Below are positions 31,148 to 39,269 of a stretch of 40,427 bases of DNA, in pieces. The stretch's first letter is position 1; the number at the start of each line of letters is the position of its first letter. Origin of the DNA: a virus (taxonomy: Duplodnaviria; Heunggongvirae; Uroviricota; Caudoviricetes); the IMG/VR virus record IMGVR_UViG_2636416136_000013, positions 1 through 40,427 of that record. The stretch is one strand, 5' to 3'. The notes under the pieces were generated by a model that worked only from the letters and a program-made list of their open reading frames with translations, did not search any database and was not told the origin of the DNA. A program made the translations under genes and the position numbers.

Positions 31148-32563
31148 ATGGCTACGTGGCAACAGGGTATTAATTCTGGTGGTTTTCTGGCTGGCATCGG
31201 TACGCAAAATGAGAATGCGCCAAAGGCAAGCGACATTAACGCAACGCTTGGTCTGATCCGCGAAAACAATGAACTGGCTCGCTCAGGTGTAAATAACGTT
31301 GGCCTGACCGCGTTACGTGGTCTGGCTGGAGTTGCTGATATTTACAATCAGGAACAGCAACAGAAAGCTATTAGTGCGTTCAATAAGGTTCACGCTGATG
31401 CATGGGCTTCTGGTGATCCATCTGGACTATTTAAGTTTGCCCAGGAAAATCCAGCGTTTGTTGCGCAGGCACAACAGGCGTTTTCCGGTCTTAATGAGCA
31501 GCAACGCAACGATATGGGCGATTTAGCCATGAGGGCTAACGTCGCTCTTTCTCAGGGACCGGAAGCCTACAGTAAATTCATTACTGACAACAAGGACAGG
31601 TTAAATCGCGTTGGTGCTAATGCTGACTGGATGATTCAGACAGGTATCCAGAATCCAGAGCAGCTATCACACATGCTGACTACTATGTCTCTCGGTGCGC
31701 TTGGGCCAGAAAAGGCGTTTGCTGTTCAGGATAAGATGGCTGGTCGTGAAATTGACCGAGGCAGGCTGGCAGAGACAATCCGCAGCAATCAGGCTGGTGA
31801 AGCACTTCAGGCGAGAGGGCAAAACCTTTCCTATCAGTCAGCAATGACTGGGCACAATATCGCAGCACAACGCTTGGCTCTGGATCAGCAAGAGTTCGGG
31901 TTTAAGATGCAGCAAGCGCAGGAAAAGGCTCAGCAGTTGATTAGCGAAGCACCTAAGCTGTCAGTAAACATGGAAAAAGGCATCGAGACGGCTGTAAATA
32001 ATGCCACAGCATCATCAAACTCAGCCAATTCCATGAGTGCGCTTGCTCAACAGTTCAGAGCAGAAAAACCAACGACCGGTTTGTTCGGTAACGCACAGAA
32101 CATGTTCGCAAAACTTACCGGAAGCGATACGACATTGCGTGATTTGCGCATTCGCCAAAATGCCCTTGTTAACAGTCAGGTTCTTAAATTCCTACCTCCC
32201 GGCCCAGCAACGGATAAAGACGTTGAGATCGTTCGACAGGGTGCGCCAACTGACATGGATAACCCTGAGACGGTCGCAAGATGGCTTGATGCAATGGCAA
32301 ACCTTGAGCGACGAAATGCGCAGTTTAATGAGTTTAAAGCCGAGTGGATGAGCGCGAATGGCAACCCTGGACAATCGCGTAATGGCGGTCAGATATTGGG
32401 GTTGGATGTTAAAAAAGGTGAATCATTGGGGAGTGCCGTTAAGCGGTATATGTCAATGAATACTGACGCAGCGCCAGCACAAGATTCGACACCTTCAGGA
32501 GAACCACGGAATCAGGTTGGATCATATACCTCAAAATCAGGCATTCAATTTACGGTGGAATGA
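31148..32563 (+). CDS. Ejection/internal virion protein (P22 gp20-like)
   Basis: 471 aa; size and position match P22 gp20. Confidence 0.65.
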
Positions 32564-34791
32564 TGAAAGTAACTGCAAACGGTAAGACATTTACCTTTCC
32601 TGATGGTACGAGCACCGAAGATATTGGCACCGCCATTGATGAGTATTTTGCTGGTCAGGCTGTTCAGCAACAAACAGTTAATCAGGCCAATAATGCACCA
32701 ACACGGGAAGAACCATCATTGATGCAACAAGCTGGCGATTGGCTCACTGGTGGTCAAAGTGCAGGGCAAATTGTAGAACAGGCTGGTCGTGGTCTGGTAA
32801 ACATACCATTTGACGTATTGCAGGGTGGCGCAAGTCTGATTAATGCAATCAGCCAGGGGCTTGGTGGCCCCAAGGTTTTGGACGATGTCTATCGTCCAGT
32901 AGATCGACCGACAGACCCTTATGCGCAAGCTGGAGAGTCAATAGGCGGTTATCTTGTTCCTGGAGCAGGAGTAGCTGGAAACATGGTCATTGGTTCTCTC
33001 GCTGACGCGGCGAATCAACGGGGTGATTTTGCCGAAAATGCCGCTATTAATGCCGGACTTAACATTGCTACGCATGGCCTGATAAATGGCGTTACCCATG
33101 GTGTTCGTGGTGCATCAAATATAATTAGTGGCAATAAAACATCTGCACAGAGAGCGACCACTGCGCCAACAGAAACATCACCATTCTCCGGTGATGCCGC
33201 TGCAGCAACAAATCCTGCGGTTCATGCCGCAGAGGCAAGAGTAGCACAAGGTGTACCAATGACGCCTGCGACGAGGAACCCAGAGGAAGTCGTTCGCACA
33301 GTAGCAGCACAAAAAAGGCCAAATCTCGCTTCATCGCTTGATGAACTAGATATCAATCCTCAGGCTGAAGTTCTGGAGTCTGCTGAAAGGCTTAATGTTG
33401 ATTCATTACTCCCTTCACACTTTTCCGGTAACGAGCAATACAAGGCAGTTGAGCAAGCAATCAAGTCCCGTGCGGGTTCTGCTCTACAGGTGCAGGAAAA
33501 TGAAGCAATCAGGCAGCTAGCACAGGGCGCGGGGGAGATAATTGATCGCGTTTCCGGTGCAAAAGATGCTCTTGGTATGAGCGACAAGTTTATTGATACG
33601 GTCAATGGAAGAATGTCTGCGCTGATGAAACGAAGCGACCAGCTTTATCGCAATGTTGAAAAGGCGATGCCTGCAGGTGCAAAAATTGATGCGCCATCAA
33701 CAAGGTCAATGCTCAAACAGGTGGCAGAAGATCTTGGCGGGATGAAAAACCTTGACCCTATTGAAAAGAGAGTCTTTCGGGCAGTTAATCCAGGCAAGAA
33801 CGGCGCATTAACTTATGCAAATCTCAATAAGCAACGACGACTTGTTGGTGATGCACTTCATAAGAATTCTGGGCCATATAAAGATGCTGATCGCGCTGCT
33901 TTATCGAGGCTTTACGGTTCTCTCGCCGATGATCAAAAGGCGGCGCTGTCAGAGACAAATGCATTACGTGATTTTGAAGTTGCTCAGAGGCTTGTTCAGA
34001 TGCGAAAAAGCATGGAAGAGCAAATGATTAATCTAACTGGCAGAACGCTGAACGGTGATGTTTCTCGCAAAGCAACTACAGCACTACAGGCAATGTCGAA
34101 AGGCGATGCCAAAGGATTTCGTGAATTGATGCAAAACACGCCGTCCAGGAAGCTAAGAACCGAGCTACTGGGAACAGGTCTTCGGGATATGCTTTCGAAC
34201 GGAAAACGTGGCGCTGATTTTAATCCTGCAGGGTTTGCTGACTGGTATCAAAACATGTTAGCAAACGGGCAGATGCGCAATCTTGCCCGACATTTACCAA
34301 AAGAGACTATGTCAGGGCTGAACGATGTATATAAGGTCGCAAAGGCTATCAAAGACGCAAAATCTTACGAGATAACTACAGGAAGACTAAACGAGTTCGT
34401 CAAACGGTTTAATCGCGTCACTGCGGCAAATGAATTTGTTGCTAACCATGCCCAACGCATTGGCACTGCGGTTGGTTCAACTGTGTCAGGACCGTTCAGT
34501 GCAGTAGGTGCTGTTGCTGGGTCAGAAATTGGGGCAAAAGTCGCCAGCAAAATCAGGGCGATGGGCGGCGCTGAATCAATTGAATCTGCAGAAAAGCTAA
34601 TTAGCTCACCAGAATTCCAGAAAGCAGCAAGGCTGGCAGTAAAACAAGCACCAGAAAGCATCGTTGATACAACTGTAAGACGCTCTTCTGCTTGGCGCTC
34701 GTTTTACAACTCACTTCCAGAATCAGATAAGAAAACCATATCAAGGCTAGGCATCATGTACTGGATGAACAGTGATGATAACCAGAAGTAA
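32560..34791 (+). CDS. Ejection/DNA-transfer protein (P22 gp16-like)
   Basis: 743 aa; last gene of the ejection-protein trio before the accessory region. Confidence 0.6.
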
Positions 34792-34808
34792 CGGAAAGCC
34801 ACGGATGG

Positions 34809-35006
34809 TTAGTTGCAGTCTTTTTTATATAAATCTCTGAGCGTATCAAAGACAATTTTCTTTACCATATCGGATTGTTGGTCTGCAATACGCGATGCTA
34901 TTGGTAGCGATGAATTCAATCGCTTGTCGAGAGCTGGTATTGTCGCCTCGTTAAGCGGAATGGAGCGGGAGTAATTAGTAATCCACGGATGGATTCGTTT
35001 AGCCAT
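34809..35006 (-). CDS. Hypothetical protein (65 aa), distal gene of a small minus-strand operon
   Basis: ORF overlapping the stop of the upstream ~140-aa gene by 8 nt; no recognisable motifs. Confidence 0.45.
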   Translation of the reverse strand: MAKRIHPWITNYSRSIPLNEATIPALDKRLNSSLPIASRIADQQSDMVKKIVFDTLRDLYKKDCN

Positions 35007-35445
35007 CGGATAGGCGCTCTTTTGCCTCTTCGATTAAATCAGCACAAATAAGAGGTAGCTCTGATGAAACAACTTCCCAGCCAGATTTTTTAACAACTTC
35101 ATTTAACCACTCTTCTCGATCGTGAGTTCCTCTTCTTTTTTCTAGGAGGAATATTTGAGAGTAAATCTGAATGGCCTTCTCGTTTAGATAAAACGCATAT
35201 TGCCTGTTTAAAACAACATCTGCAAGTATATCAATGCCTTGTTGAGTTTTTGCCGCTACATCTGGCTCTACTCCCATACGAATAGATAAATCGCATAACT
35301 CAACGAATGCACGCTCTTCAGCGTCGTATTTCATTTTGTAAAAATGTGAAGCCAGTTTTTGTGTTTCGGCGAGTTCTGCCCTTAATTTTTTTATCTTGCT
35401 TCTCGTTAATATACCAAACACACCAACCTCCTTAGTTTTGAGCAT
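34999..35445 (-). CDS. Hypothetical cytoplasmic protein (~140-148 aa)
   Basis: ORF 34999..35445; an AAGGAGG Shine-Dalgarno lies just inside the annotated 5' end, so the true start is probably the GTG at plus 35419..35421. Confidence 0.55.
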   Translation of the reverse strand: MLKTKEVGVFGILTRSKIKKLRAELAETQKLASHFYKMKYDAEERAFVELCDLSIRMGVEPDVAAKTQQGIDILADVVLNRQYAFYLNEKAIQIYSQIFLLEKRRGTHDREEWLNEVVKKSGWEVVSSELPLICADLIEEAKERLSDG

Positions 35446-35474
35446 GACGAAATTAACCAGCCATCAGGATGGTA

Positions 35475-35657
35475 TTAGTCACATTCTATTTCTTTTGTCG
35501 AGGTCCATACATAAGGGTCTGAGCAAACAACCTCTCCATTTATCATGACGTCATAGCCCATTAGATATGAGTTACCACCAACAACCTGGGCGGCGATGAC
35601 GCTAATGCTGGCGGCGCAGGCTGCACCAAAAACGAAACCAATTAATATATTTTTCAT
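35475..35657 (-). CDS. Small secreted protein (60 aa) with signal peptide
   Basis: [25 protein letters not shown] resembles a signal peptide; the ~35-aa mature part contains two Cys. Confidence 0.45.
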
Positions 35658-35679
35658 TTTGATTCCAAATAGTTATAGG

Positions 35680-35874
35680 ATGAAAGTTACGACCATAGAA
35701 GAACGCCTGAACAACACTGAGTTAAACCAAACCCTGCTTGACCAGCGACTTTCAGATCTTGAACTTAAAGATCTTGATGCGCAAATATCAGAAGCAGAAG
35801 CCAAGCTCTCCAGCTTAAACCACCGCAAGAAGCAAATCCGCAACAGAATTACTCAGGGACGCGGAAGCTGTTGA
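35680..35874 (+). CDS. Possible small coiled-coil protein (64 aa)
   Basis: ORF frame 35596..35874 with internal ATG; heptad-like sequence; weak ribosome-binding context. Confidence 0.25.
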   Translation: MKVTTIEERLNNTELNQTLLDQRLSDLELKDLDAQISEAEAKLSSLNHRKKQIRNRITQGRGSC

Positions 35875-35895
35875 TGTAGGGCCACAATCCTATCG

Positions 35896-36285
35896 TTAAC
35901 ATTTTCTTTTTACTTTTCCAACAAAAGCTTTGGTTGAATCCATATTTCCATAACCGGAAATGGTTTTTGACATTAAAACTGTTCCAGTAGGATGTATTAC
36001 CCATGAGTCTATAACGCGTTGAGTTTCTCCATTCGCGCCAATTCCTAGGATGGAGTTTTTAGACAATGCTTTGTAAGCCATGCCACCCGCATCTGTCCCA
36101 GAATATGTGACGCTGGCATCTTCACCGCTTGTCTTAATGATGAATGTTCCACTAAAACCATCTTCTTCCGGTTGGAAATTATTTCGTTCTGAATAGTTTA
36201 TTCCGCGCATATCTCCAACGACCCAGCACTCCGCTGTAGCCCCAAAAGATATGAATAAGAACATAGCAGCAAGAAATTGCTTCAC
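35896..36285 (-). CDS. Secreted/periplasmic hypothetical protein (129 aa; GTG start)
   Basis: AAGGAGG Shine-Dalgarno 5 nt upstream of the GTG; signal-peptide-like N-terminus (M)KQFLAAMFLFISFGATAEC. Confidence 0.6.
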   Translation of the reverse strand: MKQFLAAMFLFISFGATAECWVVGDMRGINYSERNNFQPEEDGFSGTFIIKTSGEDASVTYSGTDAGGMAYKALSKNSILGIGANGETQRVIDSWVIHPTGTVLMSKTISGYGNMDSTKAFVGKVKRKC

Positions 36286-36402
36286 GCCAACCTCCTTAGT
36301 TTTGAGCAGGATACCATGAAAAAAGTAAACATCTTTTGTCTACTTCACATTTGAATGGTTTGTCATTAGGATGTTTCCGGTTTTTTAAATATGGAAATTG
36401 TT

Positions 36403-36822
36403 ATGAAGAGGATTATTGGCGTCGTTGCTGGCGCTATATTGTTATCTGGGTGCGCAACTATTGTTGGTGACGAAACGCAGCTTGTGCAAGTGAACAGCAA
36501 TCCCTCCGGTGCGAGCTTTAAGGTAAAAGACGAATCAGGCGTGATTGTTGCGCAAGGTAAGACCCCGCAAGGAGTAACTCTTGCCAAGTCAGATGGTAGT
36601 TATTTTGGCAAAAAGAGCTACCAGATCACTATGGAAAAGGATGGGTACGAACCAGTTACCCTGCCAATCAAAGCCAATGCTAATGGCTGGTATATTGGTG
36701 GAAACCTTGTGTTTGGTGGGTTAATTGGTTGGCTTGCTGTAGATCCTTTTAATGGTGGGATGTATACCTTGAAGCCAAAAGAGGCAAACGCATCTCTTAT
36801 ACCATCAACAAAGCAAGACTAA
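36403..36822 (+). CDS. Lipoprotein (PEGA-like fold suspected)
   Basis: Lipobox MKRIIGVVAGAILLSGC; mature part has KDGYEP and a Gly/Trp-rich C-terminus; followed by two tandem terminators. Confidence 0.65.
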   Translation: MKRIIGVVAGAILLSGCATIVGDETQLVQVNSNPSGASFKVKDESGVIVAQGKTPQGVTLAKSDGSYFGKKSYQITMEKDGYEPVTLPIKANANGWYIGGNLVFGGLIGWLAVDPFNGGMYTLKPKEANASLIPSTKQD

Positions 36823-36831
36823 TAAATAGGA

Positions 36832-36854
36832 CCCACCTTCAGGTGGGTTTTTTG
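36832..36854 (+). terminator. Rho-independent terminator 1 after the lipoprotein gene
   Basis: ACCCACC-TTCA-GGTGGGT followed by TTTTTTG. Confidence 0.75.
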
Positions 36855-36904
36855 TACAAATCCTTCAGCCAGTACATAACTACTGACAGATAACCAACGC
36901 AACG

Positions 36905-36929
36905 ACCCAGCTTCGGCTGGGTTTTTTTA
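36905..36929 (+). terminator. Rho-independent terminator 2 (tandem)
   Basis: ACCCAGC-TTCG-GCTGGGT followed by TTTTTTTAT. Confidence 0.75.
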
Positions 36930-36986: not shown

Positions 36987-39161
36987 ATGACAGACATTAC
37001 AGCCAATGTGATCGTATCGATGCCTTCGCAACTCTTCACTATGGCTCGTTCTTTTAAAGCTGTAGCCAATGGCAAAATTTATATCGGTAAAATTGACACT
37101 GACCCGGTAAATCCTGAAAACCAAATTCAGGTTTATGTGGAGAACGAAGACGGCTCTCACATTCCCGTTTCGCAACCAATAATTATTAACGCTGCTGGCT
37201 ACCCTGTATATAACGGACAGATTGCCAAATTCGTAACCGTGCAAGGCCATTCTATGGCTGTTTATGATGCGTATGGTACACAGCAGTTCTATTTTCCGAA
37301 TGTGCTGAAGTATGACCCGGATCAGTTTAAATTACTTATTGGCGGTACAGATGGTAGTAAATATATCGGTTTCGGCGCTTCAACTGTTTACGATGCAATC
37401 AGGAAAACACCTCAATACTATGGAGCTAAAGCAGATGGATTGACATCAGATTCTGATGCCATTAATGCCGCAGCATTAGCTGCTTTTAATAATGGTGGCG
37501 GGGAAATATTTTACCCTCCAGGTGTTTATTTAATAGATTCTCCTATCATTCTTTATACAGGCGTTCATCATAAAGGCTCTGGAAAGAGAGCAACATTTCT
37601 GTATGTTAAAAAAGGTAGTAATACAGATGTATTTAAAACACATGGCTTTGGCGTTGTGGATAATCTGTCTGATGCGCCATATGGTTTTAGCATAAAAGAT
37701 ATGACCATTGATGGTAATTATCTTGACTTGCAAAGAGATACAAACTCATGGAGAACTTGCGACACTGTTAACAATGACTATGGAACTGCCATTAAAATAT
37801 TCGGCAGCATGTACCACATTGATGTTGAGATTAATAATGTTGCAGAACATGCTCTCTATTCAGAGGGGTATGGATCATTTCATGATAATCAGGAACACGC
37901 CTCTGAAGTGAGGATAACGGGAAGAATTTCAGGGAGAGAGGGGGTTGTGTTCAGGGGGCCAGGTGATATTAACCTAGATTATATTGTTTTTGGCCTGTGT
38001 GGACTTCCTCCTTACAGCACAAGATTAACAGCAACAAGCCAACAAAGCCTTCTTTATCCCGGAGAACCATGTCATGGAATTGTTCTTGATAATCAGTCTC
38101 CTTATACAGGACATGTCGATATAAATTACATCCATGTATATGCTGCGTATTATGGCTATGGATTTAAGACGCTGGGTGTTAACCGATTCAATGCGAGGCA
38201 TGTGTGTGTTGATAATAGTTTAGGTGGTTACTGGTTTACCAACGGGGCACATGGTGTTGTTGCCATCGCAGAAGCCAGGGCGTGCGGAAGAATGCCAGAT
38301 AACTACACTGGCGATTCAATTTCTCCTCTCCGCGACATGCTTCTGGATAACGGTACAATCTGGACACTTAACATCAATATAAAAGCACAAAGATATTCAC
38401 CTTCAATTGATGATGATGGGTATCAGATAGCTATATCAGGCAACAACAATGTAGTTACAATAAACCAAATTGGTCAGTTACAGAGTGACAATGCCCCTAT
38501 TAAAGCCTCGCTTCTTTCTGTTACTGGTGACAATAACAATGTTACTTTTACATCCAAGAGGATAAAAGGAAATTTATGTTACTTATCCGGCGGTGGTAAT
38601 AATATAAGAGGTTCGTGTGATAATTTGTTTTCGGGTTCTGCTCTTATTCGCGATGCAGTAAATTCAACAACAATTTGTTTTGCGAACAGCGTAGATATAA
38701 CTGCGAAGGGGCTTTCTTCTGATTGTACTGGATTTAACAGCATTGGCACATGTGCATCAGAGAATATAAGATTAATCACTTCAGGCGCAAATGGTTATAA
38801 TAGGTTTTTAGGTGATAGAATGGCAGCCCTTAACAGGACGTGTACGTGGACGATTATGGCAACAGTTGGAAACTCAATAAATGGGAAATCAACTGACGAT
38901 TATATTGAGTGGAATATGCCAAACCCAACAGGTAGCGAATCTAACGAGGTTGATATTGAGCATAATTTTCTGTATGCCCCAACACCAAACCAGATTGCTG
39001 TGTTGGGGTTTAGACAACCTGCTGGTTCTGCAGAAGGTGCAACTTTAAGTCCAATAGAAATTATCGGAACTCCAAGTGAGTCTTCTTTCAGAATTAGATA
39101 CCATTGGTCAGGCACTTTATCTTCTGGCTCTGCTCCAATTGTAATGTTCAGGATTAGATAG
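36987..39161 (+). CDS. Tailspike protein (P22 gp9-type head-binding N-terminus, divergent beta-helix receptor domain)
   Basis: N-terminal ~115 aa [58 protein letters not shown]...NVLKYDPDQ matches the P22/HK620 tailspike head-binding domain; the rest is different and has a pectate-lyase-like start [18 protein letters not shown]. Confidence 0.85.
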
Positions 39162-39211
39162 AATTAATTGATATTTTAAAAAATTAAATTATTAGTTGAT
39201 AAATTGTATGC

Positions 39212-39250
39212 GCAAGGCCTGTAACTTGAGTGCCAGGCCTTGCATGTTTT
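39212..39250 (+). terminator. Terminator between the convergent tailspike and integrase genes
   Basis: Stem GCAAGGCCTG...CAGGCCTTGC followed by ATGTTTTCATT. Confidence 0.6.
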
Positions 39251-39269
39251 CATTGATTTTTAAGATGGT

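Follow-up and report, generated by a model that had tools for sequence, protein, structure and literature searches.

We consider it rather probable that the region between the gp16 and tailspike genes of this virus is an HK620-type ant moron, a patchwork of cassettes whose genes are expressed from the prophage and act at the envelope, likely in exclusion or surface conversion. The DNA analysed, referred to here as the window, is the whole stretch of 40,427 nucleotides (IMG/VR record IMGVR_UViG_2636416136_000013). Five single-gene cassettes, each portable, would make up the slot, with recombination scars at the joins: the tMNT/tANT pair, one 3' relic each of gp16 and of a Kapi1_062-type gene, and two 3' relics of mnt (Table 1). 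The sieA expression slot would accept either the 129-aa periplasmic or the 140-aa cytoplasmic protein as cargo, and the GTG start of each would be the point of fusion to the conserved promoter-proximal leader and ribosome-binding site (RBS) of P22 sieA. In other phages such a leader-cargo unit stands directly after gp16, and the window would hold two of them in tandem. The fifth gene, encoding a lipoprotein, would be an autonomous moron with its own promoter-like site and the tMNT terminator. We infer prophage expression of all five genes and an envelope site of action for what they encode, which for the 140-aa protein would be the cytoplasmic side. The likeliest roles would be blocking the DNA delivery or adsorption of superinfecting phages, or another form of cell-surface conversion.

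Table 1. Features of the slot and its borders (positions in the window)
Feature	Position	Strand	Basis or remark
gp16-type DNA-transfer (ejection) protein	32560..34791	+	743-aa ORF; left border of slot
mnt relic 1, last ~28 codons (tetramerisation helix only)	34809..34893	-	Pfam Repressor_Mnt and P22 Mnt alignment
65-aa ORF, probable chance fusion of mnt relic 1 and antisense of gp16 relic	34809..35006	-	not under protein constraint
gp16 3'-end relic, different allele	34885..34974	+	aligned with STEC383 and p11A prophage gp16 ends
140-aa cytoplasmic all-helical protein, GTG start	34999..35421	-	family alignment, AlphaFold2, codon counts
sieA-type leader copy 1, RBS and GTG start, truncated	35419..35447	-	direct repeat; aligned with P22 PsieA
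60-aa secreted mini-protein: signal peptide and ~38-aa mature peptide, 2 Cys	35475..35657	-	phrog_37095, E=5.6e-46
64-aa coiled-coil protein	35680..35874	+	phrog_7586, E=1.6e-41
Kapi1_062-type gene 3'-end relic (NSFRVPE*)	35849..35872	-	C-terminal heptapeptide and stop in common with Kapi1_062
129-aa periplasmic protein (signal peptide)	35896..36285	-	phrog_2651, E=1.3e-59
sieA-type promoter-proximal leader copy 2 and RBS, fuller copy	36286..36334	-	aligned with P22 PsieA/sieA and epsilon34 gene 14
Candidate sigma-70-like promoter of lipoprotein gene (TTCACA-17-TAGGAT)	36344..36372	+	consensus match only
139-aa outer-membrane-type lipoprotein	36403..36822	+	LLSGC lipobox
tMNT, bidirectional terminator, common to lipoprotein gene and former mnt	36830..36853		hairpin and HK620 annotation
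mnt relic 2, last 9 codons and stop (LKDLYKKPT*), ends at immI deletion junction	36839..36868	-	epsilon34 alignment
tANT, terminator once 3' of deleted ant gene	36904..36927	+	hairpin, epsilon34 alignment, HK620 annotation
Tailspike	36987..39161	+	Pfam Head_binding (E=2.4e-66) and pectate-lyase-like domain; right border of slot

Identity and gene content of the slot

The flanks of the slot are homologues of gp16 (gene 16) and of the tailspike (gene 9). P22-like phages have their hypervariable accessory slot, the ant moron, at this position (Villafane et al. 2008, PMC2629481). Kapi1, epsilon34 and Sf101 have regions homologous to the gp16-type gene that bear the annotation DNA transfer protein. 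The synteny of the slot holds against P22, epsilon34, HK620, Kapi1 and Sf101, and comparison with Emek points to the same location. The slot contains non-morphogenetic genes together with remnants of immI (mnt, arc, ant), and its content differs in every comparator; its GC content is 0.38-0.44, compared with 0.45-0.51 in gp16. Judged by sequence, the region can be assigned to the ant moron of a P22-like (Lederbergvirus) E. coli temperate phage or prophage, a slot type that has already been published. The initial annotation had placed an accessory (moron) cluster here, and both flanks and synteny bear this out; all the ORFs that it listed are present. Its view that the slot holds a different set of genes from its relatives did not stand, as a hypervariable content is usual for the ant moron and each cassette is found in databases.

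Five small genes in the slot are real (140-aa, 60-aa, 64-aa, 129-aa and the lipoprotein), the plus-strand 64-aa gene having been missed by the initial annotation. They had been described as unrecognised, but PHROG families exist for four of them, and each of the five is found again in other P22-like phages or prophages. Because each recurs beside different neighbours elsewhere, we regard the genes as portable cassettes. Among 50,697 phage records and 5,426 E. coli genomes, the combination of the 140-, 60-, 64- and 129-aa genes and the lipoprotein without immI was found in none at ≥80% coverage, the best match to the whole combination being E. coli M172-1 with 74% coverage. The window thus appears to be a new combination of cassettes already known singly.

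Searches of Pfam, NCBIfam, PHROGs and PADLOC returned only families of unknown function, the Mnt C-terminal domain and a sub-threshold match of the lipoprotein to PEGA. PDB sequence searches gave nothing significant, and an Rfam scan of the region detected no RNA families. The PADLOC-DB defence models matched nothing except for coiled-coil noise of the 64-aa protein (PbeC, JetC; E about 2e-3), and likeness to SieA, Cor or PADLOC defence proteins was found for none of the five. Homology to virion structural components, which would have spoken against a conversion function, was likewise not seen in the slot genes.

Relics and the immI deletion

Nearest to gp16 lies the 3' end of an mnt gene. Residues 37-61 of the 65-aa ORF matched Pfam Repressor_Mnt (E=1.3e-12), and the relic is 73% identical to residues 56-81 of P22 Mnt. 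A complete Mnt has about 83 aa with an RHH domain and a tetramerisation helix, whereas only the C-terminal domain was detected here, with no Arc/RHH match. The gp16-end/mnt junction of Sf101 matches the window DNA at 94.8% identity, and PGAP annotates just a 19-aa CDS at this relic in E. coli M172-1. For the adjoining gp16 relic, the alignment with the genuine gp16 3' ends of prophages STEC383 and p11A takes in the stop codon as well as the downstream CCACGGATGG motif, which is duplicated in the window (copies at 34796 and 34980). The relic falls into cluster 1 of the gp16 C-termini, with which the 140-aa cargo is usually paired, and it appears to have arrived together with the 140-aa cassette.

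The 65-aa ORF had been annotated as a gene overlapping the 140-aa gene. It is a chimera of the two relics, synonymous and non-synonymous differences are about equal in its frame (8:8 and 9:10), and it is absent beside the 140-aa gene in p11A, STEC383, M15 and Serratia. The 65-aa ORF is probably not a gene.

At the other end, the two tandem terminators reported by the initial annotation were confirmed, each being a real hairpin with a U-tract behind it (about -14 kcal/mol, z about -3); they also proved to be a known deletion scar. The annotation of HK620 describes tMNT as "associated with remnant of P22 mnt gene" and tANT likewise with the P22 ant gene, and the annotated HK620 tMNT-tANT junction and that of the window are identical. 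The loss of immI (mnt-arc-ant) from the window is evident in the alignment with epsilon34, and the slot is in the HK620-type state with mnt-arc-ant deleted. The immI region is not simply absent, as had been assumed, because its scars persist in the two mnt 3' relics and the tMNT/tANT pair. With the HK620 ant moron (AF335538) the window shares the slot, the high flux of unrelated small genes, the mnt/ant remnants and the tMNT-tANT junction; it differs from this and other ant morons in having two tandem leader-cargo units, not one.

The sieA-type leader, its cargos and the neighbouring genes

A 29-nt repeat precedes both the 129-aa and the 140-aa genes, and none of 100 shuffles gave a match. The 129-aa gene has the fuller copy, which is nearly the same as the region upstream of P22 sieA for about 49 nt and holds an extended -10-like TGgTATCCT; the truncated copy lacks the TGGTATCC part. 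P22's annotated -35 element has no conserved counterpart upstream of the 129-aa gene, and the promoter calls in the slot are weak consensus matches. We identify the repeat, by alignment, as the promoter-proximal leader, RBS and GTG start of P22 sieA; 85 bp upstream of sieA are enough for single-copy expression and exclusion in P22 (PMC10883804). Since the leader copy of the 140-aa gene is without its upstream part, which seems to have been lost, this gene probably shares a transcript with the 60-aa gene.

The same leader, ending in ...TGGTATCCTGCnCAAAACTAAGGAGGTTGGnGTG, is fused at GTG to at least 12 unrelated protein families, including SieA itself (128 sites listed, mostly IMG/VR), and elsewhere the cargo lies next to the gp16 stop. 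The distance between the cargo stop and the convergent gp16 stop is a few tens of nucleotides at most sites, with family medians of 3-57 nt in 11 of the 12 families listed. For the 129-aa and 140-aa cargos the median elsewhere is 28 nt; in this window they lie 1108 nt and 211 nt from the gp16 stop, displaced by insertions. An N-terminal hydrophobic segment is present in 10 of the 12 listed families, and an eleventh has an annotated signal peptide. The cargos reassort against gp16 C-terminal alleles. The leader occurs in at least 214 of 5426 complete E. coli genomes, and a scan of species-representative genomes with two patterns gave zero matches. The commonest cargo among the matches listed is the 129-aa protein (30 of 128 sites).

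The two cargos share with P22 sieA the position (first leftward genes after gp16), the leader, the RBS and the GTG start. They differ from SieA in sequence and architecture. SieA proteins are inner-membrane proteins of ~160-200 aa with several membrane segments and a C-terminal FxRYPxEAxxFNK motif (PMC10883804), P22 SieA having 164 aa and four segments, whereas of the two cargo proteins the 129-aa one is periplasmic and the 140-aa one soluble, and neither has internal membrane segments. BLASTP of all six window ORFs against P22 SieA gave no significant match, and hhalign of the 140-aa family against SieA gave a probability of 0.3%. The leader nevertheless offers a concrete basis for inferring that the two genes are expressed like a superinfection-exclusion gene.

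The start of the 140-aa gene had been placed at ATG 35445. The gene itself is real, and because every member of the family alignment begins with MFG, its start is GTG 35421, which is preceded by an AAGGAGG Shine-Dalgarno sequence. The family is small (12 representatives among 1.84 billion proteins, 17 clusters; named members all Enterobacterales), is confined to this slot and is conserved down to 33% identity with invariant motifs. Codon counts (synonymous:non-synonymous 18:6, and 3-4:0 in closer pairs) indicate strong purifying selection. No match was found in Pfam, PHROG, PADLOC or PDB. The AlphaFold2 model is a helical hairpin (pLDDT 77), for which Foldseek against the PDB returned only generic coiled-coil or ESCRT-III/PspA-like hairpins (E≥0.24) that we judged uninformative. 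The protein has no signal peptide or membrane segment, unlike other cargos of the slot.

The initial annotation had several products targeted to the envelope, and this is supported by the N-termini of the 60-aa and 129-aa proteins and by the lipobox of the lipoprotein. The 60-aa protein has a Sec-type N-terminus and is 97% identical to Kapi1_060, in which residues 1-22 are annotated as signal; its codon differences are too few for a judgement on selection. The 129-aa protein, which takes the place of gene 14/hkcB of epsilon34, has a hydrophobic N-terminal segment with an A-T-A cleavage motif, and its mature chain has a Cys near each end. It is 96% identical to Emek orf129, and a synonymous:non-synonymous ratio of 6:6 suggests that purifying selection on it is weak. 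The 64-aa protein is 98% identical to Emek orf61, and its plus frame shows third-codon-position bias ([0,3,8] and [0,1,6]) with a ratio of 8:3. These codon counts speak for coding in the 64-aa gene, as do those of the 140-aa gene and the lipoprotein, and less strongly so in the 129-aa gene. Some pipelines label it "XhlA family", a label (PF10779) that we could not reproduce, as the 92-aa ORF has no XhlA match in Pfam or NCBIfam at E≤0.1. The hydrophobic N-terminal extension of that ORF is the antisense of the 60-aa gene's signal peptide, and the conserved 61-64-aa core has no hydrophobic or membrane segment.

The lipoprotein has a signal peptide with lipobox (MKRIIGVVAGAILLSGC) in which, among 66 homologues, Cys17 is invariant and Gly16 nearly so; Ala at +2 suggests outer-membrane sorting by the Lol rule. 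Its predicted parts are a transthyretin/PEGA-like beta-sandwich, a Gly-rich hydrophobic helix and a beta-hairpin. The family has 728 members with 25 invariant columns, and a ratio of 20:3 points to strong purifying selection. Its promoter candidate is the sole 9/12 match in the region and is conserved in epsilon34; this site, a strong terminator and the lower GC content of the slot would fit a moron, and transcription against or independently of the late operon, as initially proposed, is supported. The same lipoprotein is gene 15 of epsilon34 (98% identity), and in the phage collection tblastn gave matches to epsilon34, Gally and 720R6 only. Homologues with 68-71% identity lie between the tail-chaperone and tape-measure genes of siphovirus prophages, and the Proteus one has its own promoter-like site and terminators on its flanks. 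That slot, in HK97-like and Proteus prophages, is the one that houses gp15 of HK97, a moron with proven exclusion activity (Cumby et al. 2012, PMC3594210). Gp15 differs in being an inner-membrane YebO-like protein and not a lipoprotein, and homology between the two was not detected. Cor (phi80/N15) and Llp (T5) are likewise small outer-membrane exclusion lipoproteins of phages or prophages with a lipobox, but the likeness to the Cor PHROG is limited to the signal peptide and lipobox (aa 5-24, E=0.0036), and the predicted fold of the window lipoprotein is different.

The literature searched contained no exclusion or LPS-change function for any of the five genes. A search on the common leader, "ant moron", hkcB and PEGA lipoproteins returned as relevant only the 2008 epsilon34 and 2024 SieA papers. 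The Kapi1 transcriptome paper, which is without per-gene values, does not single out the homologues Kapi1_060/061 for high expression in lysogens. It is plausible that the genes are expressed in the lysogen and would serve in exclusion or conversion.

Alternative explanations and biological meaning

The initial annotation had considered a two-component toxin-antitoxin-like module made up of the 140-aa and 65-aa ORFs. Their 8-nt overlap (ATG inside ...GATGGCTAA) has a geometry that fits translational coupling, and toxin-antitoxin-type genes (PIN, YafO) are present in other E. coli ant morons. However, the 65-aa ORF is an mnt 3' relic fused to the antisense of a gp16 3' relic and is without protein-level constraint, the 140-aa gene stands partnerless against gp16 in the four prophages named above, and Pfam, NCBIfam and PADLOC contain no matching toxin or antitoxin domain. 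Membership in the type II systems is refuted on these grounds of conservation, and we hold such a module to be extremely improbable. It is also quite improbable that the cluster is decaying debris left after immI loss, with all ORFs functionless. At least four gene relics and one deletion scar lie within 2.1 kb, the promoter signals are weak, and the 129-aa gene shows no excess of synonymous changes (6 to 6). Yet the five ORFs are unbroken here and recur in that state in many prophages, the 140-aa gene and the lipoprotein are under strong purifying selection, and both families keep their invariant positions, the 140-aa family down to 33% identity.

A role in the phage lytic cycle, in lysis timing (through an XhlA-like protein or a spanin-like lipoprotein), control of read-through into the tailspike or help in DNA delivery, would agree with the location of the slot inside the late operon, with the XhlA label and with the lipoprotein homologues within tail-gene clusters. 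We think this improbable, since four of the five genes are opposite to the late-operon strand or have their own terminator, the XhlA label fails and the 64-aa core has no membrane segment, virion parts exclude exported lipoproteins, and many viable P22-like phages are without each gene. The envelope proteins could also serve host fitness or virulence instead of acting against phages, for example in serum resistance, adhesion or membrane stress tolerance, by analogy with lambda Bor and Lom. The lipoprotein family is widespread in Enterobacterales on phages of different morphotypes, which argues against a target specific to P22-like virions; a Gly-rich hydrophobic helix with a beta-sandwich is a feature of membrane-embedded lipoproteins, and precedents have been reviewed (PMC3594210). 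Against this stand the lack of homology to Bor, Lom or characterised factors and, for the 129-aa and 140-aa genes, the leader in common with sieA and the position against gp16, which point to phage-phage conflict. We regard a pure host-fitness role as unlikely, and prefer the reading of the slot as an ant moron with envelope-acting exclusion or conversion genes.

A bolder form of the preferred reading, which we offer only tentatively and think unlikely as a whole, is that the leader marks a site of cassette exchange with at least a dozen swapped exclusion factors aimed at the ejection conduit, and that the lipoprotein is a cross-morphotype exclusion factor. If this were true, P22-like phages of E. 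coli, Shigella and Salmonella would swap small unrelated proteins there, bounded by the gp16 3' end on one side and the leader on the other, and the window would carry two exclusion factors in tandem. With the soluble helical 140-aa family, a factor acting at the cytoplasmic face of the inner membrane would be known for the first time, and the lipoprotein would be used by podoviruses and siphoviruses alike (HK97 gp15 slot).

The slot itself is textbook for P22 specialists; its practical use could matter. The common sieA leader gives a simple rule for extracting candidate exclusion genes from P22-like prophages, and the existing single-copy galK assay for SieA could be reused unchanged on leader-cargo candidates. 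Because unrelated phage types carry it in two classic moron slots, the lipoprotein is a good candidate for a general envelope-conversion factor. Blockers of DNA delivery, if found, would offer a new way to probe the gp7/gp20/gp16 trans-envelope conduit and would bear on predicting the host range of O-antigen-specific phages.

Gene content of the gp16-tailspike slot

The virus is a P22-like (Lederbergvirus) temperate phage of E. coli, and its nearest relatives, phiv205-1, CUS-3 and Kapi1, matched it across the last 25 kb with 60-66% coverage and 94-96% identity. Its interval between the gp16-type gene and the tailspike gene is the gene-16/gene-9 interval of P22-like phages that Villafane et al. 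(2008) named the "ant moron", which varies in length, lacks morphogenetic function, differs in gene set between phages (ten types among sixteen genomes) and frequently holds immI (mnt-arc-ant) or its remnants (PMC2629481). The initial annotation had read the cluster as a moron, which was right but already established in that work. All the ORFs it listed were present in the window, and its description of the cluster was largely correct; the start of the 140-aa protein and a missed plus-strand 64-aa gene needed correction. The GTG was assigned as the 140-aa start because all family members begin MFG, and codon-position bias favoured the plus frame for the 64-aa gene.

Features of the slot and its flanks (window positions)
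Feature	Position	Strand	Remarks
gp16-type DNA-transfer protein, 743 aa	32560-34791		left flank
140-aa protein	34999-35421	minus	GTG start behind AAGGAGG
sieA leader, truncated copy	35419-35447	minus	
60-aa protein	35475-35657	minus	signal peptide; ~38-residue mature peptide with two Cys
64-aa coiled-coil protein	35680-35874	plus	overlooked in the initial annotation
Relic of Kapi1_062-type gene	35849-35872		last seven codons; further scar
129-aa protein	35896-36285	minus	signal peptide; Cys near both mature-chain ends; phrog_2651
sieA leader, fuller copy	36286-36334	minus	
Lipoprotein	36403-36822	plus	LLSGC lipobox
tMNT	36830-36853		terminator
tANT	36904-36927		terminator
Tailspike with P22 head-binding domain	36987-39161		right flank; then integrase

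The P22 ant moron contains sieA, orf59a, mnt, arc and ant. Every slot gene of the window has its counterpart in the same slot of another phage or prophage: epsilon34 gene 15 for the lipoprotein (98% identity), Emek orf129 for the 129-aa protein (96%), Kapi1_060 for the 60-aa protein (97%) and Emek orf61/Kapi1_061 for the 64-aa protein (98%). The 140-aa protein is of the WP_000467047 type, present in E. coli prophages. All five genes are real and mobile. No phage record and no complete E. coli genome searched held the complete five-gene array, and the best match to the whole array, E. coli M172-1, covered 74%. Judged from these comparisons, the combination is new, the individual cassettes are already known, and the slot is a known hypervariable one.

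Other E. coli P22-like ant morons held a PIN-domain protein with a partner and a YafO-family toxin with a partner (comparison loci L007, 3629-4887; L008, 5342-6345; L009, 4644-5180; H33/H36). ClpP-like protease, P63C-domain and Panacea-domain proteins were encoded at the same loci, and the ant moron appears to be a general hotspot of defence and toxin-antitoxin genes.

Deletion scars and the 65-aa ORF

At the right end of the slot, the window stays aligned with epsilon34 through the lipoprotein gene with its terminator and through the final nine mnt codons (LKDLYKKPT*), and then skips to sequence 3' of ant, where the ant terminator precedes the tailspike leader. Relative to epsilon34 it lacks about 1.5 kb of mnt-arc-ant, with a CCTTCAG heptamer at both break points. 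The junction in HK620 is identical, and there the GenBank entry names the hairpins tMNT ("associated with remnant of P22 mnt gene") and tANT ("associated with remnant of P22 ant gene"). The two tandem terminators recorded after the lipoprotein are present, each folding at about -14 kcal/mol before a U-tract, and therefore represent this known deletion scar.

At the left end, the 65-aa ORF that overlaps the 140-aa gene is built from further scars. The two ORFs had been proposed as a possible toxin-antitoxin-like module. The 65-aa ORF ends with the Mnt tetramerisation helix, which makes up its C-terminal 26 residues (Pfam Repressor_Mnt, E=1.3e-12; 73% identical to residues 56-81 of P22 Mnt), and the DNA at 34700-34893 was 94.8% identical to the gp16-end/mnt junction of Sf101. 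Its N-terminal half is the antisense of a relic 3' end from another gp16 allele; this relic (34885-34974) aligned with the genuine end of gp16 in both the STEC383 and the p11A prophage, stop codon included, and with the downstream CCACGGATGG, a motif with two window copies (34796 and 34980). Synonymous and non-synonymous differences were about equal in the ORF frame (8:8 and 9:10), and the PGAP annotation placed only a 19-aa fragment at this locus. The 140-aa gene directly adjoins gp16 in p11A, STEC383 and M15 with no downstream ORF, and a 50%-identical homologue from a Serratia prophage lies after mnt, abutting gp16. Domain searches found no toxin or antitoxin domain in either member. We rejected the toxin-antitoxin module, since the 65-aa ORF is a relic fusion, conservation of the pair is lacking and neither member has such a domain.

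The sieA leader and its cargos

A 29-nt direct repeat upstream of the 140-aa and 129-aa genes, with matches in 0 of 100 shuffles, is the P22 sieA promoter-proximal leader, Shine-Dalgarno and GTG start (P22 leader: ATGTTAACTTTTTTCATGGTATCCTGCACAAAACTAAGGAGGTTGGTGTG). Two of the five genes thus carry the sieA leader. The copy before the 129-aa gene, of which TGGTATCCT is part, was near-identical to P22 over about 49 nt. The 140-aa genes of other prophages have the proximal ~36 nt in common, and the window copy before the 140-aa gene lacks the TGGTATCC part. With no promoter-like site between them, the 60-aa and 140-aa genes probably lie on one transcript. Gene 14 of epsilon34 (hkcB-like) also has the leader.

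We scanned IMG/VR with a 22-nt leader core, which returned at least 120 stretches and, with the comparison loci, gave 128 usable sites. Among the matches listed, the ORFs fused at the leader GTG belonged to at least 12 families without relation to one another: the 129-aa protein (30 sites), hkcB-like (25), a membrane-anchored coiled coil of 109 aa (17), SieA (8), the 140-aa protein (8), Kapi1_059-type (5) and six others. The cargo stop in these matches lay mostly a few tens of nucleotides from the convergent gp16 stop, with family medians of 3-57 nt in 11 of 12 families. An N-terminal hydrophobic segment was present in 10 of the 12 listed families and an annotated signal peptide in an eleventh; the 140-aa family alone shows neither feature. 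Cargos were freely reassorted against gp16 C-terminal alleles, one allele being adjoined by five cargo families among the matches listed. These results suggest that the sieA leader is a docking site common to unrelated cargos.

The leader was carried by at least 214 of 5,426 complete E. coli genomes and by 0 of 185,579 species-representative genomes. The concept of conserved "boundary sequences" marking mosaic joints is established, and the CUS-3 annotation has one, bsq. A literature search returned no description of the sieA leader as common to unrelated genes. The sieA gene itself occurs in only 22 of 66 P22-like phages (PMC10883804).

Products, flanking genes and proposed role

Three of the products carry export signals: the lipoprotein and, with signal peptides, the 60-aa and 129-aa proteins. 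The divergent 60-aa and 64-aa genes have their start codons only 22 bp from each other (35658-35679), so the promoter of each must sit within the coding sequence of the other. This spacing also leads pipelines to lengthen the 64-aa ORF to 89-92 aa; the added part runs antisense to the 60-aa signal-peptide codons and yields a spurious hydrophobic N-terminus. The "XhlA" label of some pipelines was not reproduced, and the conserved core lacks a membrane segment.

The 140-aa protein lacks a membrane segment and matched nothing in Pfam, PHROG, PADLOC or PDB. It is predicted to fold into a long helical hairpin plus two more helices (pLDDT 77), and structure comparison of the model gave uninformative matches. 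The family is very small (12 representatives among 1.84 billion proteins, 17 clusters), its named members are all Enterobacterales, and it retains an invariant core (AAKTxEGxxILxxVVLNRQYAFYLNExAIQ) at identities down to 33%. The synonymous:non-synonymous ratio of 18:6 shows purifying selection on the gene. Serratia and Citrobacter homologues likewise lie in the gp16-tailspike slot. A Pantoea homologue (38-39% identity; loci L011/L012, 6001-6429) lies inside a degraded island beside an IS element, an integrase fragment and a convergent 141-aa ORF without domain matches, distant from any recognisable P22-like structural genes.

[quoted passage not shown] The Proteus homologue comes with a promoter-like site of its own and with terminators on its flanks, and one of the E. 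coli prophages carries a porin gene right after the tail genes. HK97 has gene 15 in this slot, a proven exclusion gene and the first to be named a moron (PMC3594210); the slots are alike, whereas the proteins are unrelated.

Among the flanking genes, the gp16-type protein gave nothing better than E=0.055 in a Pfam search, whereas SLT and Phage_P22_gp16 domains are present in a Serratia homologue. Mutations that escape SieA lie in the C-terminal region of gp16. The last 60 residues of the window protein were a singleton among 120 sampled gp16 C-termini, and for these two reasons this allele may have an unusual sensitivity to exclusion. Behind its head-binding domain, the tailspike has a pectate-lyase/rhamnogalacturonase-like receptor-binding domain (PF12708, E=1.4e-10), which suggests an O-antigen specificity different from that of P22, HK620 or CUS-3. 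The integrase gene begins only ~108 bp (39162-39269) after the tailspike stop, and the phage therefore lacks gtrABC or O-acetyltransferase conversion genes at this, their usual position, unlike P22, epsilon34 and HK620.

We infer from position, common expression signals, targeting and precedent that the leader-driven genes and the lipoprotein would be expressed from the prophage, as sieA is. Their products would act at the envelope, the 140-aa protein on its cytoplasmic side, excluding superinfecting phages or otherwise converting the cell surface. Published work on Kapi1 does not implicate its homologues Kapi1_060/061. We hold the structural and evolutionary account of the slot with high confidence and consider an anti-phage function of its genes possible but tentative; the explanation as a whole, with both parts joined, is moderately favoured. 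The one result of more general use is the sieA-leader rule for locating candidate exclusion genes.
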